DNA from: Candidatus Latescibacterota bacterium
GTDB lineage: Bacteria > Latescibacterota > UBA2968 > GCA-2709665
Length of the DNA: 64,000 bases
Reading direction: 5' to 3'
Assembly (NCBI GenBank): GCA_965203805.1
Contig: OZ241917.1
Coordinates: forward strand, 5,248,001-5,312,000
The notes under the pieces were generated by a model. It searched no databases. It had not been told where the DNA came from and was given only the letters and a program-made list of their open reading frames with translations. Position numbers and translations under genes: made by a program. Every line of letters starts with the position of its first letter. The stretch's first letter is position 1. Shown one piece after another: positions 1-15,712 of this stretch.

Positions 1-81
1 TTAATATGAGGAGTGATGAACATGGGATATTTGTCCGTCTTTCGCGATTATAGGTAGCCATTGCTGTCCATGAACGGATTT

Positions 82-166
82 GTAGGGGCGTCCCTTGTGG
101 GCCTGCCCGCAGCGCCTGTCTGCGTACACGCACAGGCAGGCAGGGCACTGCGCAGGCAGGCGCCCT
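82..166. repeat. GTAG-type REP palindrome (gtaggggcgtcccttgtgggc|gccct) interrupted by a nested CTGCC...CAGGCAGGC element (103-161, inner element 116-141)
   Basis: Removing 103-161 restores a GTAG-prefixed palindrome; the same composite insert occurs at 38113-38172. Confidence 0.75.
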
Positions 167-327
167 CCATTTGGATGGGAATCCGTAGGGTTTGCGTCGC
201 GGCGAGAATGGATTCTTGCGCGGTAATGTGGGCGTCCTATACGTACCGGCAGCCACCAGACCTCATACGGCACAATGTTGTTCTTCACGGGGGAATACCA
301 TGACGACAAAGAGGAACAGAGCGAAGC

Positions 328-372
328 AAAAAAGGGGACATCAAAAAAGGGGACATCAAAAAAGGGGACATC
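328..372 (+). repeat. Perfect tandem repeat, 3 x 15 bp (aaaaaaggggacatc)
   Basis: Units read directly at 328-342, 343-357 and 358-372. Confidence 0.95.
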
Positions 373-548
373 CAGTTGTCAAACCATCGGTGGAAACACT
401 CGACGAGGTTCCTGGGAACCTGAAGCGAGCGCCATTAAACTCTCGCCAGAAGGTACATGGCGGGCGGAAGTATCTCGATCGGAGCCGATGAGGTCTGCGG
501 ATCATTACGTGACTTTAACTCAAACGAATACCGTGCAAAGGTAGAGAT

Positions 549-3500
549 ATGTCAGGACGCCTATTTACTGACTATTTCCTCACAGATGGCATCAAGGACA
601 CCGACGAATGGAGGGCCTCGGTTGAGAATGCGGAGGCATTCGCCACTTTCAGGGACGGCGTAAGCGAGCGTTACGATGCCCTTTGTCGTTCCGGGGATCC
701 TAACGAGGCGGTTACCGAGCAGGAGCTGATCAGACCGGTTCTGGAGTTGCTGGGGTGGGCGCACTATCTGCCCCAGCAGGGCGCGGCTGCCAATGAGGAT
801 ATTCCCGACCATCTTCTTTTCGCCGATGCCGATTCCAAGCAAGTTGCCTCTACGAAGCGCAACGCAGGTGCCCGCTTCCGAAACGCGGTGGCAGTGGAGG
901 AGAGCAAGCGCTTTGGACTTTCCCTGGACGAACGTGACAAGGAGGACAAAGTCCGTACCGGGACGCCTCACGGCCAGATCCGCAGGTACCTCTCAACGGC
1001 CGATATCGAGTCGGAGGGTCGGATTCGATGGGGCATCCTGACCAACGGCAGGGTTTGGCGTCTCTACGATCACCACGCCAGGCCACGAGCGACGGGTTAC
1101 TTTGAAGTCGATCTGGAAAAACTGCTCAAGTCGGATACCGTAGACGACCTGCGGGTTTTTCATCTGTTGTTTCAACGGAATGCTTTCACGCTGAGTGACG
1201 GCGCGACGACCACGTTTCTCGAAGCCGCCCTTGCAGAGGGAAAGCGCTATGAGGAAAAGGTCACGCAGGATCTCTCCGGGGTTGTCTTTGAACGTGTGTT
1301 TCCGGCTCTGGTTGAAGCGCTGGCCGATAAATCGGGCGAAAGCCTGACCGATTGCCGGAACGCCGCGCTGGTTTTGCTCTATCGTCTGCTCTTTGTCCTT
1401 TACGCGGAGGACCGTGGCCTCCTGCCCGTTAGTGATTCACGTTACGACGACTACGGCCTTCGTAAACGGGTGCGGTACGATATTGCGAACAGAATGAAAG
1501 ACGGGGACACCTTTTCCGCGATCGCCACGAATTACTACGACCGACTTGTCAATCTTTTCCGAATTATCGATAACGGCGATCCATCCATTGGGCTCCCCGC
1601 GTACAACGGCGGCCTTTTTGCTCCGGCAGCCACTCCAATACTGGAACGCGCCCGCCTATCGGACGCTGAAATTGCGCCCATAATCTACGGTCTGAGCCAC
1701 GTCAGGGAACCGCAGGGAGAATACCAATTTGTCAATTACCGTGACATGTCGGTTCAGCAGCTGGGCTCGATCTACGAACGGCTGCTGGAGCGCGAACCCG
1801 TCTTGGAAGAAGACGGCAAGGTCGTCATTCGACCGAATCCGTATGCCCGTAAGGACAGCGGCAGCTTCTATACACCACAAGAACTTGTCGATCTGATTGT
1901 CGACCGGACCCTGAAGCCGCTGGTCGAAGAGCGTCTCAAAACCTTCGAGGATCGGGCCGCCGCGCTCAAAAGCGACCGCAGGCCGAAGTCGGAACGAAGG
2001 TCTCAGCTCGAACGGATCGATCCGGCGGTAGCTGTCCTGAATCTGAAGGTCCTGGACCCGGCGATGGGAAGCGGCCATTTCCTGGTTACCGCCGTGGATT
2101 TCCTCTCGGACGCCGTCGCTGATTTGATCGAATCCGTCCCTGCCGTGCCTGATTGGCTCGATGGCGCCTACGAGTCACCCCTTGTCAAACGCGTCGAGTC
2201 GATTCGCAGCGATATCATCCGTCGGTCCAGGGAGTTGAATTGGGTACTGGATGAAACTCAGCTTAACGACCAGGCCATTATACGCCGCGTGGTGCTCAAA
2301 CGCTGTATCTATGGGGTGGACAAAAACCCGTTAACCGTCGAGTTGGCCAAGGTGTCCCTCTGGTTGCACAGCTTCACCGTAGGCGCGCCTTTGTCCTTTC
2401 TCGATCACCATCTGCGCTGCGGGGACTCGCTGCTCGGCATGCGAGTGTCGGATGGCTTGAAGGATCTTTCACAGTTGGGCAACCTTACTACAGGTACGGC
2501 CATCGCACAAGCAGAGCAATCAACTAAGGGCATGCAAAAGATCGAAACCGTGACCGACGTTGATGTTGCGGAAGTCCACCGGTCTTCGGCGCTCTTTGGT
2601 GAAGTAGAGAATGCGACCTCAGATATACGCGGGCTACTCGACTTTCTTTGTGGTCGGCGGTGGCTCAAGGCGGGGATTAAGAAAAAAGACGCCGCTCAAT
2701 TTGAGGAACCACTCATCAAGACGCTTTTTCAACACAAACCGATTGCCTATAGACTTCTGGCACGCGGCCCACTTCAACTTGACAGTGGTGACCACGAGAC
2801 TGGTGTTGGCGACTGGTCGAAGTTTTGCAGGTTCTGGCAACGCACACAAACAATCGCTGAAGGCGAAGGTTTTGTGCACTGGGAGGTGGCATTCCCTGGG
2901 GTTTGGCACGATTGGGAAAGGAGCCAACCAAACGGCGGATTCGACGCCGTAATTGGTAATCCGCCATGGGACCGCATCAAGCTGCAGGAGGTAGAGTGGT
3001 TTTCGAATCGTGACCGCGTACTCGCCCGGGCGCCGACGGCGGCCGCCAGGCGAGAGGGCATCCGGCGGCTGCGCGATCAGCATTCTACGCTCGTCGACGA
3101 GTTTGACGCGGCTAGGGACCGCTCCGATAGGTTAAGCCGGATGGTCCGATCCTATGGCGAATACCCGTTGCTAGGTCGCGGCGACGTCAATCTTTATTCG
3201 CTGTTCATCGAACGGGCAATGAACCTGATCAAGCCGAATGGTCTAGTTGGCCTTCTTACCCCTTCGGGGATCTGCGCCGACAAGACTGCGGCTAGTTTCT
3301 TCAAGTTTATCTCCACGAGAGGACGCGTGAGTAGTCTTTTTGACTTCGAAAACCGACGTCCCGGGGTGCCCCATTTCTTCCCTGATGTCGACTCCCGTCA
3401 GAAGTTCTGCGCACTGATCTTCGGTGGGGATGAGAGGCAGTTTGAACGGACCAATTGCGCCTTTTTTCTACACGAAACTGAGTCGATCGAAGACGTCGAC

Positions 3501-4586
3501 CGCTGTTTTCCGTTAACTCCGGCGGACTTCGCACGTGTTAATCCAAACACCGGCACAGCCCCTGTTTTTCGTTGCCGGCGCGATGCCGAGATTACCCGGG
3601 GAATCTACGAGCGGTATCCAGTATTGGTGGACCGGTCACGGGGAGGGGAGAAGCGTGTCTGGCCTGTGAAATACGTGCGCATGTTTGATATGACCAACGA
3701 TTCGCACCTCTTCCGAACCGCCGGGCAGCTTAATGGCGACGGCTTTTATCGCGTCCTCGGCAATCGCTATAAACGGGGCGAAGATGAGTATCTGCCCCTG
3801 TACGAAGGGAAAATGGTCCAGGCATATGACCACCGAGCAGCCAGCGTGGTTGTCAACCCACGAAATCTACACCGACCCGCTCAGTCACGTGAAGCCACCG
3901 ACGAGGAACACTCAGACCCTAATTGGCTACCGAGGCCACAGTTCTGGGTGCCATCATCAGAATGTGGCTGGGGATCGGGATCCAATTGGGTGCTTGGTTT
4001 CAAGGAGATTACAGCCTCCACAAACGCGAGGACATTTATCGCCGCATTGTTCCCTGCGGTCGGTTTTGGGAATAAGGTACCGATCTTTAAACCGGAAACT
4101 ACGGATCGCAACGAATGGCTGCTTCTAGCAAATCTCAATTCCATAGTTTGTGACTTCGTGACGCGGCAGAAAATCCAGGGCCAAACTCTGAACCTGTATA
4201 TAGTCGAGCAAATCCCGGTCATCTTGCAAGGAGACTACATTCGTCTGTTCGGCGAAAAGACGGCCTTCGAGCTAGTCCGGGACCACGTGTTGCGGCTCAC
4301 CTATACAGCACACGACATGGCACCATTCGCCCGCGACCTTGGCTACGATGGGCAGCCCTTTGGCTGGGATGAAGAGGAACGCCGCCACCTGCGCGCCCGT
4401 CTCGATGCGCTCTACTTCCACCTGTACGGACTTTCGCGGGACGATGCCGGCTACATACTCGACACTTTTCCAATCGTCCAACGCGAAGACGAAAAAGCCT
4501 TCGGCTGCTACCGCACCAAGGAGATGATCCTAGCGTATATGAACGCCCTCGCGGCAGGTGATACGGAGACGGATGTGGATGTATAG
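549..4586 (+). CDS. Type IIG (Eco57I-like) fused restriction endonuclease / N6-adenine DNA methyltransferase
   Basis: 1345 aa; N-terminal PD-(D/E)xK-like IPDHLLF...EESK; GSFYTP, motif I VLDPAMGSGHF, motif IV GNPPW; C-terminal TRD-like region. Confidence 0.9.
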   Translation: MSGRLFTDYFLTDGIKDTDEWRASVENAEAFATFRDGVSERYDALCRSGDPNEAVTEQELIRPVLELLGWAHYLPQQGAAANEDIPDHLLFADADSKQVASTKRNAGARFRNAVAVEESKRFGLSLDERDKEDKVRTGTPHGQIRRYLSTADIESEGRIRWGILTNGRVWRLYDHHARPRATGYFEVDLEKLLKSDTVDDLRVFHLLFQRNAFTLSDGATTTFLEAALAEGKRYEEKVTQDLSGVVFERVFPALVEALADKSGESLTDCRNAALVLLYRLLFVLYAEDRGLLPVSDSRYDDYGLRKRVRYDIANRMKDGDTFSAIATNYYDRLVNLFRIIDNGDPSIGLPAYNGGLFAPAATPILERARLSDAEIAPIIYGLSHVREPQGEYQFVNYRDMSVQQLGSIYERLLEREPVLEEDGKVVIRPNPYARKDSGSFYTPQELVDLIVDRTLKPLVEERLKTFEDRAAALKSDRRPKSERRSQLERIDPAVAVLNLKVLDPAMGSGHFLVTAVDFLSDAVADLIESVPAVPDWLDGAYESPLVKRVESIRSDIIRRSRELNWVLDETQLNDQAIIRRVVLKRCIYGVDKNPLTVELAKVSLWLHSFTVGAPLSFLDHHLRCGDSLLGMRVSDGLKDLSQLGNLTTGTAIAQAEQSTKGMQKIETVTDVDVAEVHRSSALFGEVENATSDIRGLLDFLCGRRWLKAGIKKKDAAQFEEPLIKTLFQHKPIAYRLLARGPLQLDSGDHETGVGDWSKFCRFWQRTQTIAEGEGFVHWEVAFPGVWHDWERSQPNGGFDAVIGNPPWDRIKLQEVEWFSNRDRVLARAPTAAARREGIRRLRDQHSTLVDEFDAARDRSDRLSRMVRSYGEYPLLGRGDVNLYSLFIERAMNLIKPNGLVGLLTPSGICADKTAASFFKFISTRGRVSSLFDFENRRPGVPHFFPDVDSRQKFCALIFGGDERQFERTNCAFFLHETESIEDVDRCFPLTPADFARVNPNTGTAPVFRCRRDAEITRGIYERYPVLVDRSRGGEKRVWPVKYVRMFDMTNDSHLFRTAGQLNGDGFYRVLGNRYKRGEDEYLPLYEGKMVQAYDHRAASVVVNPRNLHRPAQSREATDEEHSDPNWLPRPQFWVPSSECGWGSGSNWVLGFKEITASTNARTFIAALFPAVGFGNKVPIFKPETTDRNEWLLLANLNSIVCDFVTRQKIQGQTLNLYIVEQIPVILQGDYIRLFGEKTAFELVRDHVLRLTYTAHDMAPFARDLGYDGQPFGWDEEERRHLRARLDALYFHLYGLSRDDAGYILDTFPIVQREDEKAFGCYRTKEMILAYMNALAAGDTETDVDV

Positions 4587-4712
4587 GCCGCCGGATTGCT
4601 GCGTCGACGACGCTTGACCTTGTGTTGGAGATGAGATACGTTAGACCGGCAGAGAACATCCTCAAGGAGGCGGCATCCTGTCGCGTTCTTCGTTGAATGG
4701 CGAGGCCACGAT

Positions 4713-4757
4713 CCTGCCGCGCACCCTCCGACCGTCGGGTCGCGCGGACAGGCAGGC
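4713..4757. repeat. Degenerate CCTGCC...CAGGCAGGC palindromic element just upstream of dpdA
   Basis: cctgccgcgcaccc...gggtcgcgcggacaggcaggc has the same termini as the elements at 103, 27600 and 38113. Confidence 0.5.
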
Positions 4758-4775
4758 CTCCAGGCATGAAGTGTT

Positions 4776-6509
4776 GTGTTTATGAGCAAACAGTTACTCA
4801 TTCTCGGTTGTTCGCAGACGAAGCGAAAGTGCGGTGGTTTACTTCCTGCGATTGACCGCTACGATGGTCCCCCATTTCGGGTAATCAGAAAGTTTTTGAG
4901 AGAACACCACTGGCCGCAAGACGTCTCCATTGGTGTGCTCTCCGCAAGGCACGGTCTGTTCGGAGTCTTGAAGGGCATTAGAGATTACGACGTGAGGATG
5001 GACCTCGCCACGGCCAGATCAAAAGCGCCGGAGTGTTTGTCCGTTCTCCGAAGATGGGTCGCAGACCATGAATCGTTTCATTTGTCTCTAGGGAAGGACT
5101 ATCTGCCCGCCATTGAGCCTGCATTACAGACTCTTGAGATTAGCCCGCGCAGATTTGCCGGCCCCATTGGCATGAAAATGAGCAATATCAAGAATTTCCT
5201 CAAGAGCACATCACCTGAGCGCCGCGAAAGAGTTGAAGTTGAGAGTGGCACCGGAAAACGCAGCTATTTCCTTCCGGATTGGGACGATCTTCTGGATCCG
5301 AATTTCGACTTTGAGGAGGATGTTTTTTCGGGTAATACTCGTGAAGAAAGAGGGGACAAACATTGTTGCGTCCTGATGCAACCTGAACAGATGTGCGATG
5401 GTGTCCTCGTGAGTCTTGCTCAGAATGGGACATCCAAAGGCCCCTTACGGAGATTGCACGGAACTGAACCTGGAGCACTATCGCCGCTACCATTACGCCG
5501 TCAATTTGGTCTTTCGCCAACTCAATACCTCTTTGGTGATTGTGGCGCTTTTAGCTATGTGAACGAGGATGCGCCGACAATTTCCGTGGAACAGGCTGTC
5601 GCACTCTACGAGTTATATGGGTTCGACTTCGGTGCGTCGGTTGATCACATTCCCGTGAAGACAATCAAGACGAACGACAAAAAAACCTCTCTTTCAGATG
5701 ATCAGCGCCAGGCAAGAGTCGATCTCACTCGCGAGAATGCGAAGACATTTATCGAGGCAGCCAATAGTCGGAAAGCTGTATTCAATCCGGTTGGGACCAT
5801 TCAGGCGCTCAACGCCGATCAGTACGCTCAATGTGTCAGGGAATATTTCGACCTTGGATATCGCCATATAGCCCTTGGTGGCCTTGTGCCGCTAAAAGAT
5901 GACGAAATCGAAAGCATTGTGCGAGCAGTCGTCTTAACTGCAAACGACCTCAAAGAGCGACCCTGGATACATCTCTTTGGAGTTTTTCGTCCTGAGTTAC
6001 AAAATCTGTTTCAAGAGCTCAAAATCGATAGCTTTGACAGCGCAACGTACTTCCGGAAGGCTTGGCTCCGATCCACTCAGAATTACCTTGGCAAGAATGG
6101 AAAGTGGTATGCAGCATTGCGAGTACCTATGACAAGTGACGGACGAACACGAAAGCGATTAATAAACGCAGGTGCAGACATTGGTGAACTGGAGAAAGTG
6201 GAACGAAGAGTTCTGGATCTGCTTTGCCGATTTGATAACGATGAGTCGACAGTTGATGAGGTACTGGAAGCGATCCTAAGTTATGACCAGCACCTTGCCA
6301 GGTCCAGTGAGACACAATCCATGCGTGAACAATATCGACGAACTTTGGAAGATCGACCCTGGCGAAAGTGCGAATGCCCGTTTTGTAAGGGAATCGGGAT
6401 ACATACCCTGATTTTCCGAGGGGCGAATCGGAACAAGAGGCGGGGGGCGCACAACACACTCATGCTGTATGGGCGCATTCAGAAGGGAAATCATGTCGAG
6501 AGTATTTGA
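4776..6509 (+). CDS. dpdA: DpdA-type tRNA-guanine-transglycosylase-like protein (7-deazaguanine DNA modification family) with an extra N-terminal YaaA/DUF6884-like domain
   Basis: YFLPDWDDLLDP start of the DpdA core; TGT motifs GDCGAFSY, VDHI, LGGLVP, HLFG, SFDSA; Zn site CECPFC...RRGAHN; N-terminal ~150 aa begins LILGCSQTK...AIDRYDGP; ATG at 4782 may be the true start. Confidence 0.85.
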   Translation: MFMSKQLLILGCSQTKRKCGGLLPAIDRYDGPPFRVIRKFLREHHWPQDVSIGVLSARHGLFGVLKGIRDYDVRMDLATARSKAPECLSVLRRWVADHESFHLSLGKDYLPAIEPALQTLEISPRRFAGPIGMKMSNIKNFLKSTSPERRERVEVESGTGKRSYFLPDWDDLLDPNFDFEEDVFSGNTREERGDKHCCVLMQPEQMCDGVLVSLAQNGTSKGPLRRLHGTEPGALSPLPLRRQFGLSPTQYLFGDCGAFSYVNEDAPTISVEQAVALYELYGFDFGASVDHIPVKTIKTNDKKTSLSDDQRQARVDLTRENAKTFIEAANSRKAVFNPVGTIQALNADQYAQCVREYFDLGYRHIALGGLVPLKDDEIESIVRAVVLTANDLKERPWIHLFGVFRPELQNLFQELKIDSFDSATYFRKAWLRSTQNYLGKNGKWYAALRVPMTSDGRTRKRLINAGADIGELEKVERRVLDLLCRFDNDESTVDEVLEAILSYDQHLARSSETQSMREQYRRTLEDRPWRKCECPFCKGIGIHTLIFRGANRNKRRGAHNTLMLYGRIQKGNHVESI

Positions 6510-6691
6510 CATTAGCACGGCTTACCGAGACGAAATGATAAAACCAGGTTTTCAAATTCGCAAAGGGACGGTGGGTTCTCGCAAGCCACGACGCTACGGG
6601 TCTTAAGCTGGTTTCACTTCCTGTAAACACTGAAGACGCAAACGGTCGAATAGAGACAACCTTGTGGGCAAGGTTTGGGAAAACTGGTTGA
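6493..6691 (+). pseudogene. Possible ~65-aa small ORF split by a single-base frameshift in an A-run
   Basis: ATG 6493 overlaps the dpdA end; deleting one A at 6540-6543 gives an open frame MSRVFDISTAYRDEMINQVFKFAKGRWVLASHD...WARFGKTG* ending at 6691. Confidence 0.3.
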
Positions 6692-6746
6692 GGAGTGATA
6701 ATGAAACCATTAAGCACCCGACCTAAGGATAGCAAAAGGTCAATCT

Positions 6747-9128
6747 ATGATCAGTAATGATCGATTTCTAGACTTGGTTAGCACTCGCCTTGGGCGCGAC
6801 TTAAGGAATCCAGAAAACACCGCTCAATTCAACGCCGTAAACCACGCAGACAATCGCATTCTGCAAATCGTCGCTGGTCCCGGTTCGGGAAAGACCACGG
6901 TGCTTGTGCTCCGTGCTTTACGTTGCGTCTTTGTCCACGGCATTTTACCTGAAAATATACTGATAACTACATTTACTCGAAAGGCCGCTCGCGAATTACG
7001 CACACGTTGGCTGGACTGGGGGACGGTCATTTGTACAGAACTTGAGAAAGACTCTGGAGTAGACCTTGACCAAATTGACCTCAATCGATCCAGAATCGAC
7101 ACATTAGATAGCATTATTCAGCAGGTATTAACAGAATACCGATTGCCGGGAACTCTTGTGCCAACAGTCGTAGAGACTTCCGCAAGTAACCTTATTCTGA
7201 AAAGATCCGCGTTCAGAGAGTTGTACGAGCAAGACCGTGAGACATTTGACGGCCTTCTAAGTCGATATACGTTTAGCAGTCAGAATCCCCGCAATCGTGG
7301 AGAAGCTCTAAGAGTAGCCAAACGGTTGCTTGACCGTCTGGTTCAGGATCGTGTGGATTTGAATAGGTACGCACGATCCGGAACAGCCGAGAGATTGATA
7401 GTTGAGATGTTGGAACGCTTTCGTAAGCACGCAACAGAAACAAACGTGTTTGACTTTACGATTTTAGCAGAACAGTTTCTTGAACGCATGTCATGTGGAT
7501 CCCTTGACACCTGGCTTAATGCTGTAAGGGTAGTCTTGGTTGATGAATATCAAGACACAAATCCTCTCCAAGAAGCGGTTTATTTCGAGATTATCCGACG
7601 AGCCGATCCGTCTACAACGATAGTGGGTGACGATGACCAGTCCATGTACCGGTTTCGGGGTGGATCAGTCGAGCTCTTTACGGACTTCGCAGAACGTTGC
7701 CAGCAAGTAACTGGCCGAACGACTAGACGTGTTAACATGATTAGGAATTTCCGATCTAGACCGGAAATTGTGCAGTTCTATAACGACTACATTACAGGCG
7801 ACCCAGACTTCTCATCGGCTAGAATAATCCCGCCGAAGCCTTTAGTGGAAGCGACAAAAACGACGGGACGAATTCCCGTTCTAGGTATGTTTAGGGCCGA
7901 TCAAGAAATTCTCGCAAAAGACCTTGCAGGTTTTTTGCATCGCTTGGTTGACCAACGGAGGGTGCCTGTCATCGAAGCAGGTCAGGAAATTCGACTGTCA
8001 CCGGACGGCGCTTTGGGCGACGCAGTGTTTCTCGCGCACTCTGTTGAAGAGGAGAGTTACAGCCAATATAACCAATCACCACAAGAGCGATTTCCAGGCA
8101 TATTACGAAGTGAACTGGAATCCAAGAGTCTGCAAGTTTTCAATCCGCGCGGGCAAGCCTTACGAACCATACCAGATGTAAGCGTCCTTTTGGGTCTAAT
8201 CCTCTTGGCAATCGACCCAGACAATAGCATCATCGATGACGTGATGCCTACGAATGAGGCGAGATATTTCCTTGAGGAATGGAGCCGTCTAGCTCAAGAG
8301 TTTGTTTATTCGAACCCACCGCCAAATAACGGCAACGCACTTCGAGGATTCCTCGATGACTGGCAACGTGCGGCTTCGGGGCAGATTTCAGAAGCCTTTC
8401 CTCAATACTGGCCAATTCTTGAGCTTGTATACAAGCTTCTATCCTGGATACCTGGTTTTCAAAGCGAACCCGAACACCAAGTATGGCTGGAGGCTTTCAT
8501 GCGCATCATTTCCAGCGCGAGTATGGCATCGCCCTACGGTATGCAACTTCTCCAGAATACTTTCAGTGTTAATCACGGAAATCATGTGCGGCGCAGCAGG
8601 GAAAGTCTTGTCAGAGATGTTCTATTGTCCATCGCAGAGGACGAGGTTGACGTAGATGAGGACATTATCCCAAGTGTTCCCCGTGACAGGTTGCAATTCA
8701 TGACGATTCACCAAGCCAAGGGTTTGGAATTCCCCCTCGTTATCGTTGATGTTGGAAGTCGATTCAAGTCCAATCACCATACTCAGCGGTTCTTGAGATT
8801 TCCAGACCAACTGTCAAACGTCGCGCAAGCCGAGGATGACGTTGAAACGCATCTGAGCGCTCCGCTGCGCAGAAACCGTGGAGCGTTGGACCGTACGTTT
8901 GACGACTTAGTTCGACTCTACTATGTCGCATATAGCCGCCCTCAGTCCGTGCTGATGCTTGTTGGAAACGAAAGCTGCCTAAGGTATGGAACTGGAACAG
9001 ACTATTCAAGAAGGTCAATTCCCAATATCGCCCTGGGCTGGCGACGAGATAGGAGTTGGCCGTGGAGACAGACTTACGGTGGGGGCCGACCTCCTGTAAA
9101 GGTAGAACCGCCATTCTTGGAGATATAA
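6747..9128 (+). CDS. UvrD/PcrA-like superfamily 1 DNA helicase
   Basis: Motifs GPGSGKT, TFTRKAA, DEYQD, GDDDQSMYRFRG, NFRS, TIHQAKGLEF, LYYVAYSR. Confidence 0.92.
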   Translation: MISNDRFLDLVSTRLGRDLRNPENTAQFNAVNHADNRILQIVAGPGSGKTTVLVLRALRCVFVHGILPENILITTFTRKAARELRTRWLDWGTVICTELEKDSGVDLDQIDLNRSRIDTLDSIIQQVLTEYRLPGTLVPTVVETSASNLILKRSAFRELYEQDRETFDGLLSRYTFSSQNPRNRGEALRVAKRLLDRLVQDRVDLNRYARSGTAERLIVEMLERFRKHATETNVFDFTILAEQFLERMSCGSLDTWLNAVRVVLVDEYQDTNPLQEAVYFEIIRRADPSTTIVGDDDQSMYRFRGGSVELFTDFAERCQQVTGRTTRRVNMIRNFRSRPEIVQFYNDYITGDPDFSSARIIPPKPLVEATKTTGRIPVLGMFRADQEILAKDLAGFLHRLVDQRRVPVIEAGQEIRLSPDGALGDAVFLAHSVEEESYSQYNQSPQERFPGILRSELESKSLQVFNPRGQALRTIPDVSVLLGLILLAIDPDNSIIDDVMPTNEARYFLEEWSRLAQEFVYSNPPPNNGNALRGFLDDWQRAASGQISEAFPQYWPILELVYKLLSWIPGFQSEPEHQVWLEAFMRIISSASMASPYGMQLLQNTFSVNHGNHVRRSRESLVRDVLLSIAEDEVDVDEDIIPSVPRDRLQFMTIHQAKGLEFPLVIVDVGSRFKSNHHTQRFLRFPDQLSNVAQAEDDVETHLSAPLRRNRGALDRTFDDLVRLYYVAYSRPQSVLMLVGNESCLRYGTGTDYSRRSIPNIALGWRRDRSWPWRQTYGGGRPPVKVEPPFLEI

Positions 9129-9129
9129 C

Positions 9130-10311
9130 ATGGAACTTGAGGTCGAACGACCAGAGCATATTGTTCCATCATATTCGCTCACGGGCGACTTGCTATCATA
9201 CTTACGCTGTCGGCTACAGTATCGCTACCACAATGGTAGTGCGTTGCCTCCGTCGCGGCCAATTCAACTCTGGTTTGGTGAGTTTCTGCACGGCACCCTG
9301 GAAATGTCATATCGATTTTGGGACGAGTTGCGACGAAGCGGACAGGAACCTCCAAATTTTCCGTGGCAATGCACTAAACGGGAATGGCGGGAAGACCAAC
9401 CAAAATGGGAGGACCACGATATAGGGAGATTTGCCGACTCAGTGGAGAATGCTCTTCGGCAGCAAGGAAAACAAGCTCGAAGTGCCGACGCTCGTGACTC
9501 GGCCTACCGTCGCGTCGAGGTGGCGGTGAATGCCTTGGGACCTCACCTGTTTCCGCTTATCGCTTCTACGGAAAGCAGGGTTATCGGAACAAGACCTGTG
9601 CCGTCCCAAGGGCGAAATCTTCGTTGCGACAACTATGAAGTACACGGCATTATTGACGTTTTGACACACGTAACTCTTTCGGAAGCCACTGAAGACAATC
9701 TTATTCGTCAGTGTGTATTGCAAGCATGTCCAGACCTCCCGGAAACTTTCGAAGTAATAGTTGACTATAAAGGAGCGAGACGACCTTTGATAGAAGAAGC
9801 CTATTGGGAACAAGGAGATTGGCAGATTCAAACATACGCCTGGCTCAGAGAACGACAGCCAGACGCATTCCCAGTTGTTGCAGGAATTCTGATTTACATT
9901 AACGAGTTGTCGCCAGGCGGAGCGGAGATGCAAGCCATCAGGCGCGGCGTAGCCAATGCCTTGACTGACGTCGTCCCCGAGCCAAGCTCTAGAGATGCGC
10001 AGATTGTCAGAATGTGGCGCGAGGGTATGGGCACAGACCAATTATCACTCGATTTCCGACTACGCAGAGCCATCCGAATAATTCCGATATCTCACGGTAG
10101 TATTACGAGTGCACTCTCGTCATTTGATGATGTTGTTCGTCGAGCAGAAGAGGATGTAATTGAAGAAGCGACAGGACGTGACATCCTTCAGGCTTGGGCT
10201 CCGAACTGCGAGGATGAAGCAACATGCGTAGCGTGTGATTTTCGTCACTTCTGCCCGAGCCCTGCTGGCGCGCCGCAGGATTACCGGATCAAAGCGCCGA
10301 GTGCGCCTTAA
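9130..10311 (+). CDS. PD-(D/E)xK nuclease, RecB/AddB/Cas4-like, predicted 4Fe-4S
   Basis: N-terminal Cys (YLRC), GEFLHG, GIID, VDYK, QIQTY, C-terminal CVACDFRHFC; starts 1 nt after the helicase stop. Confidence 0.88.
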   Translation: MELEVERPEHIVPSYSLTGDLLSYLRCRLQYRYHNGSALPPSRPIQLWFGEFLHGTLEMSYRFWDELRRSGQEPPNFPWQCTKREWREDQPKWEDHDIGRFADSVENALRQQGKQARSADARDSAYRRVEVAVNALGPHLFPLIASTESRVIGTRPVPSQGRNLRCDNYEVHGIIDVLTHVTLSEATEDNLIRQCVLQACPDLPETFEVIVDYKGARRPLIEEAYWEQGDWQIQTYAWLRERQPDAFPVVAGILIYINELSPGGAEMQAIRRGVANALTDVVPEPSSRDAQIVRMWREGMGTDQLSLDFRLRRAIRIIPISHGSITSALSSFDDVVRRAEEDVIEEATGRDILQAWAPNCEDEATCVACDFRHFCPSPAGAPQDYRIKAPSAP

Positions 10312-10511
10312 TCTACGCAGTTATTCTGGTGTATATTCATACCGCCTGGGCGTCGTTGTGAAGATGTCACCTAATGAGATGATTGAGTCCGCAAATATTT
10401 ATGCAAAGGGCATCAAGCGATCAAGGTCATCGTCCATACGGCGAAATGTGATGCGCGCCTACTCACTCACAGATCAAAAATGAGCACACTTCGAGATAGA
10501 GGACGTTCTCG

Positions 10512-10835
10512 ATGCCCATAGACGACCGTTACGTTAAGAACCTGCCGGACATCTACCGCGACGTTCTTGAGACGTATCCCCAGTTCAATTCGACGCGTAT
10601 TGCCGGTGACGGTCTGGCTTACCAAACGCTGTATTCGGCATTGGCGGATGAAGAGAAGGGATACAAGTTGGGCCAGATAATCCGGGCGTGTGAGAACATG
10701 GCGGAGGTCGGTCTAATGCAGATCAAACATAAGATTTTCGCTTGCCCGACACCTCTTGGGGAAGAGTTGATTACGGCAATAACGGGCCAAACCGTGCCTG
10801 TGTCCGATGTTCCCCCTATCGAGCCACCGACGTAG
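10512..10835 (+). CDS. Hypothetical protein, possible winged-helix fold
   Basis: 107 aa; RBS gagg upstream; helix/wing-like pattern ending CPTPLGEELI. Confidence 0.6.
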   Translation: MPIDDRYVKNLPDIYRDVLETYPQFNSTRIAGDGLAYQTLYSALADEEKGYKLGQIIRACENMAEVGLMQIKHKIFACPTPLGEELITAITGQTVPVSDVPPIEPPT

Positions 10836-11024
10836 GTCGCGATTTGCACAGGGTAAGGCAGTTGTTTCAGTTGTTCAGATCGTGCGATGACATTGTCTGA
10901 GACCGCCAACCCAACATGAGACGTCCCATGGCCAAACAGACAACAAAGCCTAAACGTTCCGACCGTGAACAAGAACATGCCACCATGCTAAAAGACGCGC
11001 TTACCCGCCCAGGAGTCCGTGAAG
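10827..11024 (+). repeat. 198-bp imperfect direct repeat, copy 1 (contains truncated ORF 10928-11032)
   Basis: Aligns with 12025-12222; identical 61-bp core at 10908-10968. Confidence 0.92.
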
Positions 11025-11032
11025 GGGGTTGA
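10928..11032 (+). pseudogene. Truncated paralog of the 12126-12365 protein
   Basis: MAKQTTKPKRSDREQEHATMLKDALTRPGVREGG* vs MAKQTTKPKRSDRERNHAAMLREAIARPGVREVM... Confidence 0.75.
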
Positions 11033-11053
11033 GACTCTGTTATTGGGGATTGT

Positions 11054-11260
11054 ATGGAAAGGCCGGAGGTTGTTCGTGTGCTGGAAAGGTATTCGGGAGG
11101 AGCAGAAATCGGTACGAATGCGGAAAAAATGGGACTGACTGAGCGCCAGGCCCGTGCCCGTATCGGCGCTGCCCGACGCTACGGGTGGAATATCAAAAAT
11201 ACGGGGCTGCGGATGTTTCAGTTGTTTGATGGGGAATACAAGGGACGCTACGGTGGGTGA
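11054..11260 (+). CDS. Small HTH-like DNA-binding protein
   Basis: 68 aa; AEKMGLTERQARARIGAARRYGWNI resembles a winged HTH; RBS gggga. Confidence 0.55.
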   Translation: MERPEVVRVLERYSGGAEIGTNAEKMGLTERQARARIGAARRYGWNIKNTGLRMFQLFDGEYKGRYGG

Positions 11261-11346
11261 AAAGCCGGGGAGAAAAGCGGTGGAGGATTTCTGGGCGTCT
11301 AATCTGGCTTCGATTTTGGCGAAGGATCGAAAAAGGAGAGGATAAT

Positions 11347-11562
11347 ATGGGTGTTGTCAATCTTGTTATGGGGATGATTCACCGTGTTCGGCTGGGCGAG
11401 CGTCCTGAAGACGTGGAAGAGGAGCAGGACGAAGATCCGTTTTTGGCGCGCTCGTTACAGATAGATGAGGATATCCGCACGGGAAAGAACCGGATGCTGA
11501 CGGCTGAGGAAACGCGTCGGTTTTTCGACAGAGTTAAGAGGCGTAGCGGTGGAAATGGATGA
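11347..11562 (+). CDS. Putative type II antitoxin
   Basis: 71 aa with an acidic core and EDIRTGKNRMLTAEE; strong RBS aaggagagg; overlaps the downstream RelE-like gene. Confidence 0.6.
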   Translation: MGVVNLVMGMIHRVRLGERPEDVEEEQDEDPFLARSLQIDEDIRTGKNRMLTAEETRRFFDRVKRRSGGNG

Positions 11563-11929
11563 GGCGCACCGTCGTCAACGAACAAGAAAAGCGAGGCGTT
11601 CAGGGGCGGAATCGAAATCATCGGAACCGGAAGAACAGCAGGTTTTAATTTCTGCTTCTGTTGCCAAGTTTATAGACGGTTTGCAGGAAAACGTCCAGAA
11701 CGCGGCTTCGGACAGGATCAAAGCTCTTGGCAATCCGGCAAACATAAGGGGATCAACAAAGATCAGGGGGCGGCCCCGGAACGATCCGATGTTCAGGATT
11801 GAAACTGGGAATTACCGGGTATTTTACAAGAGGATTGGTGGGAAGGTTCATGTGGTAGAGATGGAACATCGGCAGGGTGCGTATGGTAAGGGGAAGCAAA
11901 GGGGACGACGAAAGTCAAGAAGTCGATAG
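11549..11929 (+). CDS. RelE/ParE-family toxin
   Basis: Basic protein with FRIETGNYRVFY and HRQGAY, typical of RelE. Confidence 0.75.
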   Translation: MEMDEAHRRQRTRKARRSGAESKSSEPEEQQVLISASVAKFIDGLQENVQNAASDRIKALGNPANIRGSTKIRGRPRNDPMFRIETGNYRVFYKRIGGKVHVVEMEHRQGAYGKGKQRGRRKSRSR

Positions 11930-12024
11930 TTGGGACTTTTGACGCGAAGAAAGAGGGGATTCGTATGGGTTCTGAAACTGTAAGGAACATGCCGGTCGTA
12001 GAGGTTGCTGCAAGTGGGTATCAG

Positions 12025-12222
12025 CCGACGAAGGTTGCGATTTGCACAGGGTAAGGCGATTGACACAGTTGTTCAGATCGTGCGATGGCATTACCAGACA
12101 CCGCTAACCCAACATGAGACGTCCCATGGCCAAACAGACAACAAAGCCTAAACGTTCCGACCGTGAGCGAAATCATGCCGCCATGTTAAGAGAGGCCATA
12201 GCCCGTCCAGGTGTCCGTGAAG
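12025..12222 (+). repeat. 198-bp imperfect direct repeat, copy 2
   Basis: Aligns with 10827-11024. Confidence 0.92.
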
Positions 12223-12365
12223 TGATGCAGTTTTACCAGATCTTTCAGGCAATAGATAAGGGGCTTTATCCGTACCGTCAGGCAACGAAAATTCCAGAAA
12301 TAGTGAAATCGACGGATCACTCTTATGTGGGTAAACCTGTCCGGACAGGTCTGCAAGACGCCTGA
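12126..12365 (+). CDS. Small hypothetical protein
   Basis: ~79-aa ORF with a paralogous truncated copy at 10928. Confidence 0.55.
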   Translation: MAKQTTKPKRSDRERNHAAMLREAIARPGVREVMQFYQIFQAIDKGLYPYRQATKIPEIVKSTDHSYVGKPVRTGLQDA

Positions 12366-12471
12366 TGACCCTCGGTTTCTTGATCAGGAAAGTACCCACT
12401 CGATATTTAAGGGTATGCGAGAAATACTTGAACCGAGCGACGAAATTCATTTCAGTGGAAATTCGTCATGA
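12325..12471 (+). pseudogene. Probable truncated partner gene (MWVNLSGQVCKTPDDPRFLDQ...)
   Basis: 48-codon ORF overlapping the end of the preceding gene as in a two-gene module, then ending abruptly. Confidence 0.35.
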
Positions 12472-12549
12472 AATGTAAATGAAAATGATCAGAGACTGCC
12501 CAATCAGCCTCGGATCGAACCAGGCATTACTCCCGAGGAGGATTCCACC

Positions 12550-12720
12550 ATGGATAACCCAAAAGCAACACCTGGTTAATATATACCGAAGTATAAGGCG
12601 CCAGCTCTCGAGACAAGTATTAGAGAAATTTTCCCATTATTGCCGCCGCTCCTACCAGCCAGGAAAAAAGCTCAAATTGAATCTATACTGTTTGAATTGG
12701 CCAGGGTGAGAGAGGAATAA
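12550..12720 (+). pseudogene. Small ORF with an internal stop (MDNPKATPG*YIPKYKAP...ELARVREE*)
   Basis: Strong RBS gaggagga before ATG 12550; reading frame continues past one TAA. Confidence 0.3.
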
Positions 12721-12746
12721 TTACCATATCAATAAATCGACACAAG

Positions 12747-12846
12747 ACACGGCCCAGGGCAGGTGATGTGCGCTGGGCCGTTGTGTATTTGGTTGTCTCT
12801 CGTGACTATCGTTGTAGAGCGGCTGCCCTAACAACCGCTCTTTCTA
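12747..12846. terminator. Two hairpins between convergent genes (cacggcccag/ctgggccgttgtg; agagcgg/ccgctct)
   Basis: Inverted repeats read directly, located between convergent ORFs. Confidence 0.5.
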
Positions 12847-13161
12847 TTTATACCGTTGCCTTATTTCATCCATTCTAGGATGATTCCCAGCACCCAAAAT
12901 GATAGCGCGACGTTTTTTATTATCTAATTTCATAACAAAAGCAACGCGCTCGTTCCCATTTAAACGATACTTAATTACTTGGTTCTGCCGGGATATGTTT
13001 TTACCTCCTGCTGGAATTTTTCCTACTCGAAGCTCTTGTAGAAATCGACAATACTGAATTTGCGCCTGTTCCGTTAATTTCGCGATATCTCTCTTTGCAC
13101 TGTTATCAGCTAAATAAATCTCATCGGCTTTTGGTAGAAATGGGGTTTCGCCATCAACCAT
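12844..13161 (-). CDS. RelE-superfamily (YafQ/HigB-like) toxin
   Basis: 105 aa basic; KYRLNGNERVAF...GAGNH; resembles 56692-56982. Confidence 0.6.
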   Translation of the reverse strand: MVDGETPFLPKADEIYLADNSAKRDIAKLTEQAQIQYCRFLQELRVGKIPAGGKNISRQNQVIKYRLNGNERVAFVMKLDNKKRRAIILGAGNHPRMDEIRQRYK

Positions 13162-13180
13162 CGCCTTGCCCCCTCGAAAA

Positions 13181-13660
13181 CTATTCTACCAATATAAATT
13201 GTGATGCATCTAAATTATCAGCTTTATGCAAAATCGACAAATTCCAACTGATTTCCTGTAAAATAGTAATAAATACTAAGAGTCGATCATCCACTTTCTT
13301 AAATGGTTCATATAGTATTGGACTATATTGTTTTGCCAATTCACCCAAGCGAATCCAATCCGAACTTCGTAATGAATGACTCAACTGGTCTAAGGCTTTA
13401 ATACTTCGTTCAACATTACCTCCTAAGCACAGATTAATATAATCTTGTGGATTTTGTTCCAATTCCAATAAATCCTTAGACCATTCACTAATAGCGATAT
13501 TTACCACTTCATCCACTGCTTTCAATGCATTACGTGCTTGTTCTTCACCTTCAACAATAGCCGGTCCACTATTGAGTCTTATTACATGCTGGGAGGCCAA
13601 ATGATCAATGTGTGTCCCCATATGCCTTGCACGCGGAATTTCCATTACAGTTGCACCCAT
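13181..13660 (-). CDS. Helical hypothetical protein, putative antitoxin; paralog of 56114-56689
   Basis: ARNAL..V.EV, LEQNPQDYI and DDRLLVFITILQEISW match ARSAL..VEV, LEYSPDDYI and DERLYDLISLIQEVRW. Confidence 0.7.
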   Translation of the reverse strand: MGATVMEIPRARHMGTHIDHLASQHVIRLNSGPAIVEGEEQARNALKAVDEVVNIAISEWSKDLLELEQNPQDYINLCLGGNVERSIKALDQLSHSLRSSDWIRLGELAKQYSPILYEPFKKVDDRLLVFITILQEISWNLSILHKADNLDASQFILVE

Positions 13661-13683
13661 AACCGTATCCTTATAGAGATAAA

Positions 13684-14007
13684 TTATGGCGAACCCATCA
13701 ACAATACGGATTCAGTTTCACACATCGAAGATTCAGTTACAACTAAGACAATATATTTCCAATCGTTATTCTCTGATTCTTCATTAGCGGTAGGGAAAAA
13801 ATAACGATTCTCTACTTTATATATCGTTCGATTTTGTGGTTCACGGCGATCCAAACCAGATGAAACCCAAGGGTTGACAATATGATCTCCAATTTTCGGT
13901 ATATCACCCAAGTCAGATAAGCTATACTCCTCGACTAAATCGACTAATTTCTCATCTATATACATATGTAGTCGAAATAGTATCTCTTTTTCTCTGAATT
14001 TCTCCAA
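13684..14007 (-). CDS. Hypothetical protein
   Basis: 107-aa AT-rich ORF co-oriented with the downstream module; IPKIGD...YKVENRYF suggests a small beta-barrel. Confidence 0.6.
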   Translation of the reverse strand: MEKFREKEILFRLHMYIDEKLVDLVEEYSLSDLGDIPKIGDHIVNPWVSSGLDRREPQNRTIYKVENRYFFPTANEESENNDWKYIVLVVTESSMCETESVLLMGSP

Positions 14008-14152
14008 ACCTTGTCCCTTAATTTTAAAATAAGCCTCATTAAAACAATAGACGAAATAAATATAACTAGGCGAAATTATCGACGCAATCCCTTTTTGGGC
14101 TTAATCATACTTTGCAAATACGCCCACCACAAATACCCATCCTCCCAACACG

Positions 14153-14327
14153 ATGAAGAGAACGTTGACCATCGAATACGGCGATGACACCTTCCATCTG
14201 ACCGAGGAAGACCTCCAACGGGACCTGGCCAGTGCCCGACGTCATTTGTAATACGTCCCCACTCCAGTACCTGCACCAGGCTGACGTGTTGGCACGTCGC
14301 CGCCAATTCAAAGAGCCGCCCATTTAA
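14153..14327 (+). pseudogene. Collapsed UPF0175 antitoxin / DUF3368 PIN toxin pair
   Basis: MKRTLTIEYGDD..LTEEDLQRDLASARRHL* (14153-14251, internally deleted) overlaps VPDVICNTSPLQYLHQ.. (14232-14327), a typical DUF3368 N-terminus. Confidence 0.6.
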
Positions 14328-14435
14328 ATCGTGGACGGCTTGCTTATTGACGTATTTCGCAACTGTGGATTTTCTCGTCGCCTATTCCTCGTCGATTTGT
14401 CCCTCCTTTTTCAGTTAGGTTGGCAACTTCGCGCC

Positions 14436-15377
14436 TCAAGGCGCCTGCGCCCCGACAGTCTCCACGTAGACCGAGAACAGCGATTGGGAGCAGGTCATGA
14501 ACAGCCTGTTCTTCTTTTCGCCGCCGAAGCAGAGGTTGGCGCAGGGGGCCGGGAGGTGGATCTTGCCGATGAGGGTTCCGTCGGGCGCGAAGCAGTGCAC
14601 ACCGTCGGTACCCTCGCCCGCCCAGCAGGCCCCGGCCCACAGGTTGCCGTCCACGTCGGTTCGGATTCCGTCCGCCGAGGCGGGCTCCATGTTGACGAAC
14701 ACGCGCCCGTTTGCGAGTCGGTCGCCGTCCACGTCGAACACGCGGATGTGGGCGGGGTATTCGGGGCCGTCGGAGCGCCCGGTGTCCACGATGTACAGCA
14801 GCGACTCGTCGGGGCTGAAGCACAGGCCGTTGGGCCGCTGGAAGTCTGAAACGACGACGATTGCCTCTCCGGTTTCCGGATCGAGACGGTACACGTTGGT
14901 GTCGTTCTCGAATTCGGCCTGATGCCCCTCGTAGTTCATCAGAATGCCGTAACCCGGGTCCGTGAACCAGATCGATCCGTCCGATCTGACCGCGGCGTCA
15001 TTCGGCGCATTCAGCGGCCTTCCCTCGAAGCGGTCCATCAGCACCGTAATCGAACCGTCATACTCCGTCCGGGTGACGCGACGCGCGTCGTGTTCGCACG
15101 ATACCAGCCGGCCCTGGCGGTCGCGCGTATTCCCGTTTGTGTTGTTCGACGGCTTGCGGAACACCGAGACCTCCCCCGTCTCTTCTTCCCATTTAAGGAT
15201 GCGGTTGTTGGGGATATCGCTGAACAGCAGATAGCGCCCGTCCCCGAACCACACCGGGCCTTCGAGCCACCGGCCGCCCGTCCAGAGCATTTCTATGGCG
15301 GCGGTTGAAAGCTTGTACTTCGCGAACCGGTCGTCGAGCACTTCGACCCGGCTGTCCGGATATCTCACGAGTTCCAT
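14436..15377 (-). CDS. SMP-30/gluconolactonase family protein
   Basis: EGPVW, FSDIPN, NGNTRD, PND, FTDPGYG, PNGLCFSPDE, DGIRTD. Confidence 0.92.
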   Translation of the reverse strand: MELVRYPDSRVEVLDDRFAKYKLSTAAIEMLWTGGRWLEGPVWFGDGRYLLFSDIPNNRILKWEEETGEVSVFRKPSNNTNGNTRDRQGRLVSCEHDARRVTRTEYDGSITVLMDRFEGRPLNAPNDAAVRSDGSIWFTDPGYGILMNYEGHQAEFENDTNVYRLDPETGEAIVVVSDFQRPNGLCFSPDESLLYIVDTGRSDGPEYPAHIRVFDVDGDRLANGRVFVNMEPASADGIRTDVDGNLWAGACWAGEGTDGVHCFAPDGTLIGKIHLPAPCANLCFGGEKKNRLFMTCSQSLFSVYVETVGAQAP

Positions 15378-15712
15378 GTCACTCTTCCCTGTTGATCGAC
15401 CGGTCTTGTTGTGGCTTCTGGGTCAATTCGCAATTCCTGGAAACCGCGTCCGACGTGCGAATCCGTCGTTGGCGGATTCTGAAGTCCAATCATATACGGT
15501 CCAATATGGGGATGGGTTGACGCCTTCGCCCGAAGTGCGGCCCCGCAGCAAATTGGGACACCAGCGGCGTTTTGTCAAACGAATTGGAGAACGTGGGGCC
15601 GCGCGCATAAACCACGAGGTTTCCGGGATCGGGGCCCCGGCGAGCTTGCTGCAAACGCCAGGCGGAGCGCCTGGTTTCCCCTGGAGACTGCTTCTCCTGA
15701 GATGGCCACACC

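Follow-up and report, generated by a model that had tools for sequence, protein, structure and literature searches.

A fused DUF6884-DpdA gene linked to a helicase-nuclease pair: a probable slimmed-down relative of the Dpd system in a Latescibacterota genome

Results

Three co-oriented genes in a Latescibacterota genome

The DNA analysed here, called the window, is a stretch of 64,000 nucleotides from a Candidatus Latescibacterota bacterium (assembly GCA_965203805.1, contig OZ241917.1). It covers bases 5,248,001–5,312,000 of a single-contig genome of 5.87 Mb that is 99.8% complete, and its closest relatives in the genome collection are Latescibacterota metagenome-assembled genomes. We examined a module of three genes near the start of the window (Table 1; positions are those of the window unless a locus is named). 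They encode a fusion of a DUF6884 domain with the transglycosylase DpdA (P0001), a UvrD-like helicase (P0002) and a PD-(D/E)xK nuclease (P0003). An earlier note on this sequence had described three intact, co-oriented genes, and the list of open reading frames (ORFs) bears this out; a single nucleotide separates the stop codon of the helicase gene from the start of the nuclease gene. The fusion gene probably starts at ATG 4782 rather than at GTG 4776, since its homologues begin at a methionine aligned with codon 3. The three genes are, as had also been noted, more AT-rich than the backbone. The GC content is 0.47–0.52 across 5001–10500, compared with 0.55–0.57 over 1–5000, 0.57–0.63 over 14001–20000 and 0.59–0.66 for most of the 20 kb upstream of the window.

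Table 1. Features of the module, with lengths in amino acids (aa).
Feature	Position	Strand	Size and remarks	Basis
DUF6884-DpdA fusion gene (P0001)	4776–6509	+	577 aa, GTG start	ORF
DUF6884 domain (YaaA/DpdC superfamily), CSxxK and LSAxxG motifs	4782–5255	+		profile, motifs, fold
DpdA catalytic domain, TIM barrel and Zn site	5265–6485	+		invariant residues, alignment to 7ui4
Remnant, first ~21 codons of NurA-like gene	6469–6532	+	616 aa in relatives	alignment to L003
Remnant, last ~48 codons of herA	6542–6688	+	607 aa in relatives	tblastn, blastn
UvrD-like superfamily 1 (SF1) helicase (P0002)	6747–9128	+	793 aa	ORF
Cas4/AddB-like PD-(D/E)xK nuclease, four-Cys (P0003)	9130–10311	+	393 aa	ORF

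The first gene encodes DpdA behind a probable DpdC-type domain

Residues 164–570 of P0001 scored 344.6 bits with the DpdA equivalog NF041059 (cut-off 200). The PADLOC DpdA model gave 325 bits, and the structure of Salmonella DpdA (PDB 7ui4) matched with an E value of 1.6e-70. By these comparisons we regard this part of the protein as a bona fide DpdA. Aligning P0001 to 7ui4 placed the active-site residues named in the excerpted text of PMC10164549: D255 (in GDCGAF) corresponds to D95 of the Salmonella enzyme, the general acid/base; D421 (FDSA) to D256, the nucleophile; D290 (VDHI) to D130, the base-binding aspartate; and G368-G369 to G206-G207. The zinc motif CxCxxC comprises C532, C534 and C537 plus a histidine. 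All of these aspartates, glycines and cysteines are invariant across 35 homologues, as are H543, H559 and Q343, the last replacing H181 of the Salmonella enzyme. The catalytic aspartates and the zinc site of the tRNA-guanine transglycosylase (TGT) fold are thus as intact as the earlier note had stated. Among 7996 scored sequences, 994 were relatives of P0001 at E≤0.001, and the best 120 of these were 502–604 aa long. The relatives at 60–87% identity carry the source names Dehalococcoidia, Clostridia, Alphaproteobacteria, Sumerlaeia and Latescibacterota.

We also considered whether the TGT domain of P0001 could be a protein-modifying Cap10. This was rejected because P0001 scores as a DpdA equivalog, and a TGT and a QueC of the type found in cyclic oligonucleotide-based antiphage signalling systems (CBASS) are encoded separately in the genome. 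These two lie outside the window, in a second deazaguanine-related cluster at about 4,097,045–4,100,886 of the same chromosome (G000:C1; L072, L078). The cluster holds the CBASS-type TGT (PADLOC PDLC00913, 89 bits), the CBASS-type QueC (PDLC00911, 94 bits), a TIR-like, ThsB-like protein and a weak match to a two-transmembrane (2TM) effector, and in appearance it is type IV CBASS-like.

The earlier note had called this gene DpdA. The identity stands, but an N-terminal domain had been overlooked. On profile, motif and fold evidence, we take residues 1–160 to be a DUF6884 domain, homologous to the DpdC core and fused in front of DpdA. PF21818 matched residues 9–118 with 21.2 bits, and 24.2 bits in a six-frame search, both below the cut-off of 30; stand-alone homologues in the split loci L052 and L051 scored 67.6 and 46.4 bits. 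All 34 sequences compared share C12, S13, K16, S56 and A57, and CxxxK and LSAxxG are given as DUF6884 family motifs in the excerpted text of PMC11701544. In a profile-profile comparison (hhalign), the domain aligned with canonical DpdC with a probability of 83.8% and an E value of 7.8e-6 over 139 columns, with both motifs in register. The alignment reaches the N-terminal ~190 residues of DpdC, and the C-terminal third of DpdC is absent from the fusion. The PADLOC DpdC models gave no match to P0001 at E≤0.1. An AlphaFold2 model of the domain had a predicted local distance difference test (pLDDT) of 91.9, and its best fold match in the PDB was E. coli YaaA (5caj; Foldseek E 3.1e-3, prob 1.00, template-modelling score on the query (TMq) 0.55). 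DUF6884 is given as the DpdC domain in bioRxiv 10.1101/2025.02.24.639861, and DpdC is described elsewhere in the literature as DUF328/DUF6884.

The helicase and nuclease resemble AddAB and Cas4 at the domain level

P0002 matched PF00580 (E 1.6e-44) and UvrD_C. Its Walker A motif (G44–T50), DEYQD (266–270) and GDDDQ (294–298) are conserved in 36 family members. P0003 matched PF12705 (PDDEXK_1; E 2e-12). C27, C366, C369 and C375 occur in 100% of 34 members of the nuclease family, and D176, D212-Y213-K214, Q232 and Y236 in at least 90% of them. By likeness to AddB and Cas4, we take the four-cysteine pattern to be of the Fe-S type.

With AddAB, AdnAB and RecBCD, the pair shares a UvrD-type SF1 motor, a RecB-family nuclease with four cysteines as in AddB, and coupled genes. 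It differs in that motor and nuclease are separate and much smaller proteins, with no second motor or inactive nuclease subunit, and are tied to a DNA-modification gene. The agreement ends at the generic UvrD and PDDEXK_1 domains; AddA, RecB and AddB were not reached at equivalog level. In NCBIfam, the AddA, RecB, PcrA and UvrD equivalogs all fell far under their cut-offs. AddA scored 140.7 bits (cut-off 707.65) and RecB 86.8 bits (cut-off 696.05), so that, with PcrA, scores of 87–141 bits stand against cut-offs of 696–911. Cas4 has the same PD-(D/E)xK fold, a QxxxY motif and one N-terminal and three C-terminal cysteines. However, Cas4 is only half as large as P0003, the scanned neighbours included no cas genes, and the Cas4 models matched weakly (TIGR00372, 20.5 bits; cut-off 65).

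The helicase-nuclease pair recurs beside the fusion gene

A first search of genome contigs with a single protein gave four close loci. In all, we compared 56 loci with a DpdA of the window type: these 4 genome loci, 50 of 64 metagenome loci and 2 regions fetched through the nuclease. The other 14 metagenome loci comprised 10 of canonical type and 4 without a usable DpdA ORF. Dereplication at 95% identity reduced the 56 loci to 46 clusters, of which 36 were informative, with at least 3 kb downstream of the fusion gene.

The helicase and the nuclease were both present in 31 of the 36 informative loci (29 of 34 if the nuclease-derived L088 and L089 are left out). The pair stood alone in 25 loci and followed an intervening NurA-like gene and herA in 6. 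NurA-like protein and HerA without the pair were found in L034 and in L030, which is cut by the contig end, and neither module in L033 and L043; in L051, a split form at a contig start, the nuclease alone is visible. Of the 12 short loci, nine end within a helicase gene. The pairs are of two kinds: 19 of the 31 are of the window type (34–75% identity to P0002) and 12 are of a second, distant type 2 (25–29%). In several loci, translation of the helicase gene is coupled to that of the fusion gene, and 4-nt stop/start overlaps occur in L012, L014, L021 and L024. Split genes and other orders were also found, namely DUF6884-helicase-nuclease-DpdA in L052 and nuclease-DUF6884-DpdA in L051. L005, of the same clade as the window, has the three-gene layout with a 34-nt spacer. 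A viral collection of 2.9 million contigs held one relative, with the same three genes, on a 143-kb contig.

In the reverse direction, a full-length homologue of P0003 occurred in 6 of 168 genomes of the phylum, and in all 6 it lay beside a fusion gene. Three further matches to P0003 in the phylum were 54-residue stretches in frames of about 1000 aa. The earlier note had proposed to look for DpdA-helicase-nuclease synteny without dpdB, and this is what we found, with the pair in 31 of 36 loci and a DpdB-like ORF in 1 of 56. Together with the 6 of 6 phylum homologues, these counts indicate a unit rather than the accretion of an island. A HerA/NurA context, which the note had named as evidence against such a unit, proved to belong to some of these systems.

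In a quick maximum-likelihood tree with an arbitrary root, the fusion-type DpdA formed a clade of 41 rows with an SH-like approximate likelihood ratio test (SH-aLRT) support of 100, and the DpdB-linked type formed a separate clade. The split forms lie beside the fusion clade, and the window is nearest to the five-gene loci L002 and L003. Compared with L003 and L005, all three genes gave ratios of nonsynonymous to synonymous substitution rates (dN/dS) of 0.06–0.14. These values and the intact motifs indicate that the three genes have been maintained.

Some of these loci carry further features. In L004, a Latescibacterota relative, the helicase is in two pieces (residues 1–242 and 234–791; L004:15379–18926) about 1.1 kb apart, which suggests an insertion in the gene. 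In L007 and L008, two pairs stand behind one fusion gene (e.g. L007:11959–16971), with QueC upstream; the type-2 pair is in line with the fusion gene and the window-type pair is oriented towards it. In L002, a DarT (single-stranded DNA thymidine ADP-ribosyltransferase, 72.6 bits) fused to ankyrin repeats (L002:7648–8823) lies immediately before the five-gene system, with relatives in L003 and L025. In 6 dereplicated loci, the gene immediately before the fusion gene encodes a member of a family of about 335 aa (L042:8851–9858; L017, L021, L031, L033, L034, L046), for which Pfam and PADLOC gave no match.

The window copy has lost a NurA-like gene and herA

Six loci (L002, L003, L004, L006, L088 and L089) have a five-gene form, with fusion gene, 616-aa protein, HerA, helicase and nuclease. 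From its sequence, the window copy is a deletion derivative of this five-gene system of its closest relatives, because the 237-nt gap before the helicase gene holds stumps of both missing genes. The earlier note had passed over these remnants. Window positions 6300–6532 align with L003 11525–11757 at 88%, and the gene for the 616-aa protein starts at 11694 in L003. HerA residues 560–607 matched window positions 6542–6685 at 67% identity (tblastn), and window positions 6551–6898 matched L003 15234–15580, which covers the 3' end of herA, about 45 codons in this alignment, plus the start of the helicase gene (blastn). The deletion thus measures about 3.5 kb, with a junction at about 6533–6548 that shows an imperfect similarity of about 16 nt.

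The deletion is genuine and not an assembly slip, because read-assembly contigs from two studies, three runs in all, each span 5800–7400 in one piece. Two runs of one study had 0 differences from the window, and may be its source; one run of the other study had 60 differences and no gaps. This relative, about 96% identical, therefore has the same deleted layout.

The HerA of the relatives scored 253 bits with the PADLOC HerA model. The 616-aa protein had no Pfam, PADLOC or NCBIfam family. Its nearest Atlas clusters (score 0.97) include 14–16% of members with the NurA domain PF09376, which gives a lead, and only a lead, that it is NurA-like. Hence the relatives resemble the NurA-HerA resection pair in that a putative NurA-like protein precedes HerA, whereas the window retains no more of the two than the stumps.

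DpdB is absent and genes for preQ0 supply are present

No DpdB was found in the whole 5.87-Mb genome with NF041060 and PADLOC PDLC02811; as a positive control, PDLC02811 matched twice, and strongly, in each of two plasmids. The absence of dpdB that the earlier note had reported for the window therefore extends to the genome. Among the loci, the DpdB hidden Markov model matched in 1 of 56 of the window type (L033) versus 10 of 10 of the canonical type. A screen with PADLOC and Pfam of the three genes, of the ORFs as far as 14 kb and of the 20 kb preceding the window gave no match of the DpdD-K kind; this negative result covers the surroundings of the locus, as the individual models were not run on the whole genome. 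A full dpd cluster just upstream of the window, which the note had considered as a counter-explanation, was not found in those 20 kb.

The note had also found no genes for preQ0 synthesis in the window. The genome carries three genes of the QueC family, a QueD and a tRNA TGT, with QueC and QueD lying away from the module. In other loci such genes adjoin the fusion gene itself: QueC (183–256 bits) in 4 dereplicated clusters and the QueD family (118 bits) in 6, so that one or the other stands beside it in 10 of 46.

The pair also accompanies canonical Dpd genes on plasmids

We searched 72,556 plasmid records and found a relative of P0003 in 6. On a plasmid of Bradyrhizobium sp. 41S5, the pair (helicase 46% and nuclease 51% identity) lies beside dpdC-dpdB-dpdA-dpdB and queC/D/E. 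In Rhizobium sp. WYJ-E13 (43% and 49%), it lies beside dpdC-dpdB-dpdA-dpdB and queC. The metagenome locus L068 has the same layout as Rhizobium, with the pair flanking DpdC-DpdB-DpdA-DpdB. In Halobaculum marinum, a type-2 pair stands beside queC-folE-queE-queD and a 969-aa TGT with a C-terminal DUF6884-like part, an archaeal fusion in the reverse domain order. In Picosynechococcus PCC 73109 (38% and 40%), the pair is about 9 kb from a 692-aa DpdA, and in Halomicrobium a fused helicase-nuclease is 12–16 kb from TGT genes. Finally, Nostoc pNPM2 has a type-2 pair directly after an operon of the defence island system associated with restriction-modification (DISARM), with no DpdA within 25 kb. These contexts suggest that the helicase-nuclease pair is modular and works with canonical DpdABC modules too. 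The fusion type itself was not found on plasmids: 37 records matched P0001, and none of the 37 covered 80% of the query.

The Picosynechococcus plasmid (NZ_CP014001.1; L091, 38 kb) carries, besides the 692-aa DpdA and the pair, a second short TGT between two DEAD/DEAH helicases, an annotated NurA with an ATP-binding protein, and several toxin-antitoxin pairs.

Neighbouring genes and extent of the island

The gene directly upstream of the module (549–4586) encodes an Eco57I/MmeI-like type IIG enzyme, as the earlier note had recognised. We considered it as a possible part of the system and rejected it, because none of the 68 other loci examined carries a homologue of it. The low-GC island begins just upstream of the window with a type II N6/N4 DNA methyltransferase (L095:17717–19266, about 5,245,717–5,247,266 of the genome; PADLOC 162 bits), beside two opposite-strand ORFs that are possibly its endonuclease. 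The 20 kb upstream hold housekeeping genes up to this methyltransferase and the two ORFs without assignment, which gives the island a size of about 17 kb.

Downstream, the toxin-antitoxin cluster of the earlier note came down to one sub-threshold match to ParE_toxin (11549–11929; E 0.0019, 19.2 bits, cut-off 23). The small ORFs at 10.5–14 kb had no other Pfam, PADLOC or NCBIfam family. Nine of them lie at 10512–14007, in the most AT-rich stretch (GC content down to 0.37), and those at 11054–11260, 11257–11562 and 11549–11929 overlap each other in an operon-like manner. Further along the window, 22929–27260 and 30065–33023 encode a large helicase of the Lhr type, a PRiA4_ORF3 plus LexA-type helix-turn-helix protein and a 706-aa ankyrin-repeat protein; these are unrelated to the module.

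Discussion

The module is probably a slimmed-down relative of the Dpd restriction-modification system. In its fuller form, which we hold with somewhat more confidence than doubt, the proposal is a compact 7-deazaguanine restriction-modification system of the Dpd kind, in which the writer is a fusion protein that works independently of DpdB and the restriction arm is modular and resects DNA from its ends. We favour it because modules swap around a conserved writer, the pair also serves canonical DpdABC, and the family is linked to preQ0 synthesis. The writer would be the conserved core, and the helicase-nuclease pair and NurA-like protein plus HerA behave as swappable modules around it. The DpdA domain of the fusion may exchange guanine in the cell's own DNA for preQ0 supplied by the housekeeping queuosine pathway. 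The fused DUF6884 domain would bind the DNA and probably convert the inserted nitrile base to the amide (7-amido-7-deazaguanine, ADG), and no DpdB ATPase would take part. The UvrD-like helicase and the putative Fe-S nuclease may cooperate physically as a split AddAB/RecB-like motor-nuclease that loads on ends or nicks and degrades unmarked DNA; NurA-like protein and HerA would be a second end-resecting module in the close relatives, lost here by deletion. Since both effector modules are predicted end-resection machines, restriction probably starts at DNA ends or nicks and would in some way have to be halted by the mark. Of the two models in the earlier note, a minimal deazaguanine restriction-modification system fits best with the linkage and the preQ0 genes, with the correction that a DpdC-type domain is present in fused form; the other, sensing of deazaguanines in phage DNA, is disfavoured by the linkage to preQ0 synthesis.

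Several observations weigh against this proposal. According to the excerpted text of PMC10164549, Salmonella DpdA needs ATP hydrolysis by DpdB in vitro, and DpdB is absent here. The pair is missing from four informative loci (L030, L033, L034 and L043). On the Nostoc plasmid it stands by DISARM in the absence of a nearby DpdA, and in Halomicrobium and Picosynechococcus it is 9–16 kb away from the TGT genes. At roughly half the length of DpdC, and with a score under the Pfam cut-off in the window sequence, the DUF6884 domain cannot be assumed to have nitrile-hydratase activity. The window copy lacks two genes of its five-gene relatives and could be impaired by the loss. Promoter and terminator scans gave no signal above shuffles.

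The requirement of bacterial DpdA for ATP hydrolysis could be explained differently if the module only modified DNA. The helicase would then replace DpdB, as its translational coupling to the writer in several loci might suggest, the nuclease would process nicks, abasic sites or trapped covalent intermediates, and the mark would be epigenetic or protective, with no restriction. We consider this unlikely: L068, Bradyrhizobium and Rhizobium carry two DpdB genes each and still have the pair, NurA-like protein and HerA can replace or accompany it in the same position as swappable effectors would, a type-2 pair follows DISARM without any DpdA, and the catalytic and Fe-S residues of the nuclease are all kept. 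The DISARM-linked pair, the pairs that lie 9–16 kb from TGT genes on two plasmids, and the type IIG enzyme and type II methyltransferase in the island of the window would also fit two independent systems that do no more than share defence islands: a deazaguanine writer without partners and a helicase-nuclease defence that acts by itself. To us this is the least probable of the explanations, given the linkage in 31 of 36 loci, some with 4-nt overlaps, and beside the writer in 6 of 6 phylum homologues, a linkage that survives gene fission and reordering and holds for two distant pair types.

A type IV-like activity, in which the TGT/DUF6884 protein would detect or remove 7-deazaguanines in modified phage DNA that the helicase-nuclease then destroys, draws on the reversible base exchange of TGT chemistry described in the excerpts of PMC10164549 and on the proposal, in those of PMC11701544, that DUF6884/YaaA proteins are base-flipping DNA binders. 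Deazaguanine phages would also block the neighbouring type IIG enzyme. We think it very unlikely, because a pure sensor needs no preQ0 supply and yet preQ0-synthesis genes stand beside the fusion in 10 of 46 clusters and full queC/D/E(/folE) operons accompany relatives with the same pair; moreover, the type IIG gene is peculiar to this locus among those compared. It is also quite unlikely that the window copy is a decaying remnant, inactivated by the loss of NurA-like protein and HerA despite its open frames. The stumps at 6469–6688 and the five genes of its closest relatives L002 and L003 would fit decay. Nevertheless, no natural layout is commoner than the three-gene one (25 of 36), which L005 of the same clade also has, all motifs are intact, and the ~96% identical relative from another study keeps the layout without gaps.

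Within the Dpd-like restriction-modification proposal, a more speculative and, in our view, rather doubtful idea is that the deazaguanine mark serves as a chemical "Chi": the end-resection machines would degrade DNA until dADG or dPreQ0 stops or disarms them. A translocating nuclease would then tell self by reading a rare hypermodified base, instead of cutting at specific sites. The fused base-flipping DUF6884 domain would open the DNA, so that the writer could do without DpdB, and the helicase-nuclease pair could read other marks as well, as its position after DISARM hints.

Compared with the Dpd system of Salmonella Montevideo (dpdA-K), the module has the DpdA equivalog with identical catalytic aspartates and zinc residues, a probable DpdC-type domain, presumed preQ0 supply from the queuosine pathway, and a mobile island with helicase and nuclease functions as the presumed restriction part. 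It differs in that the genome lacks DpdB, the DpdC-like part is a core of ~160 aa fused to DpdA, the UvrD-like helicase and Cas4/AddB-like nuclease stand in place of DpdD-K, relatives also have NurA-like protein and HerA, and its DpdA falls in a separate clade. The phage enzymes DpdA1-4 also act without a DpdB partner, according to the literature, but the DpdA of the window is the bacterial equivalog, occurs almost only on cellular contigs and is tied to a helicase and a nuclease, not to phage genes. BREX (bacteriophage exclusion)-related capture (BRC), as outlined in the excerpted text of PMC12839542, is likewise a predicted defence with a TGT, no DpdB and a HerA-type translocase; there, the system has PglZ, a BrxC-like ATPase, a STAND NTPase, DUF4007 and GNAT, no DpdC, and a HerA/FtsK-type motor. 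The window module has none of PglZ, BrxC, STAND, DUF4007 and GNAT, and combines a true DpdA and a DpdC-like domain with constant helicase and nuclease partners.

The literature covers DpdA-K, the phage DpdAs, the TGT-HerA "BRC", Cap10 and TIM-B. None of the literature searched describes a fusion of DUF6884 to DpdA accompanied by a UvrD-like helicase and a PD-(D/E)xK nuclease, and an earlier mention, for example in supplements, is possible; the name "PDC-M57" did not occur there either. A published dpd survey demanded dpdA and dpdB together and reported islands "lacking the restriction operon". Loci of the present kind would thus have been missed or filed as islands without a restriction operon. 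The module would probably also escape any rule that detects Dpd systems by their canonical gene set, because only DpdA scores.

The family is widespread, in many unrelated microbes. The three-gene form, with one writer polypeptide and a two-protein nuclease machine, is small enough to reconstitute, and it bears on how the restriction arm of Dpd recognises unmarked DNA and why DpdA needs DpdB. Pair-bearing forms occur in the cultured Bradyrhizobium sp. 41S5, Rhizobium sp. WYJ-E13, Picosynechococcus PCC 73109 and Halobaculum marinum, whose DNA is directly analysable.

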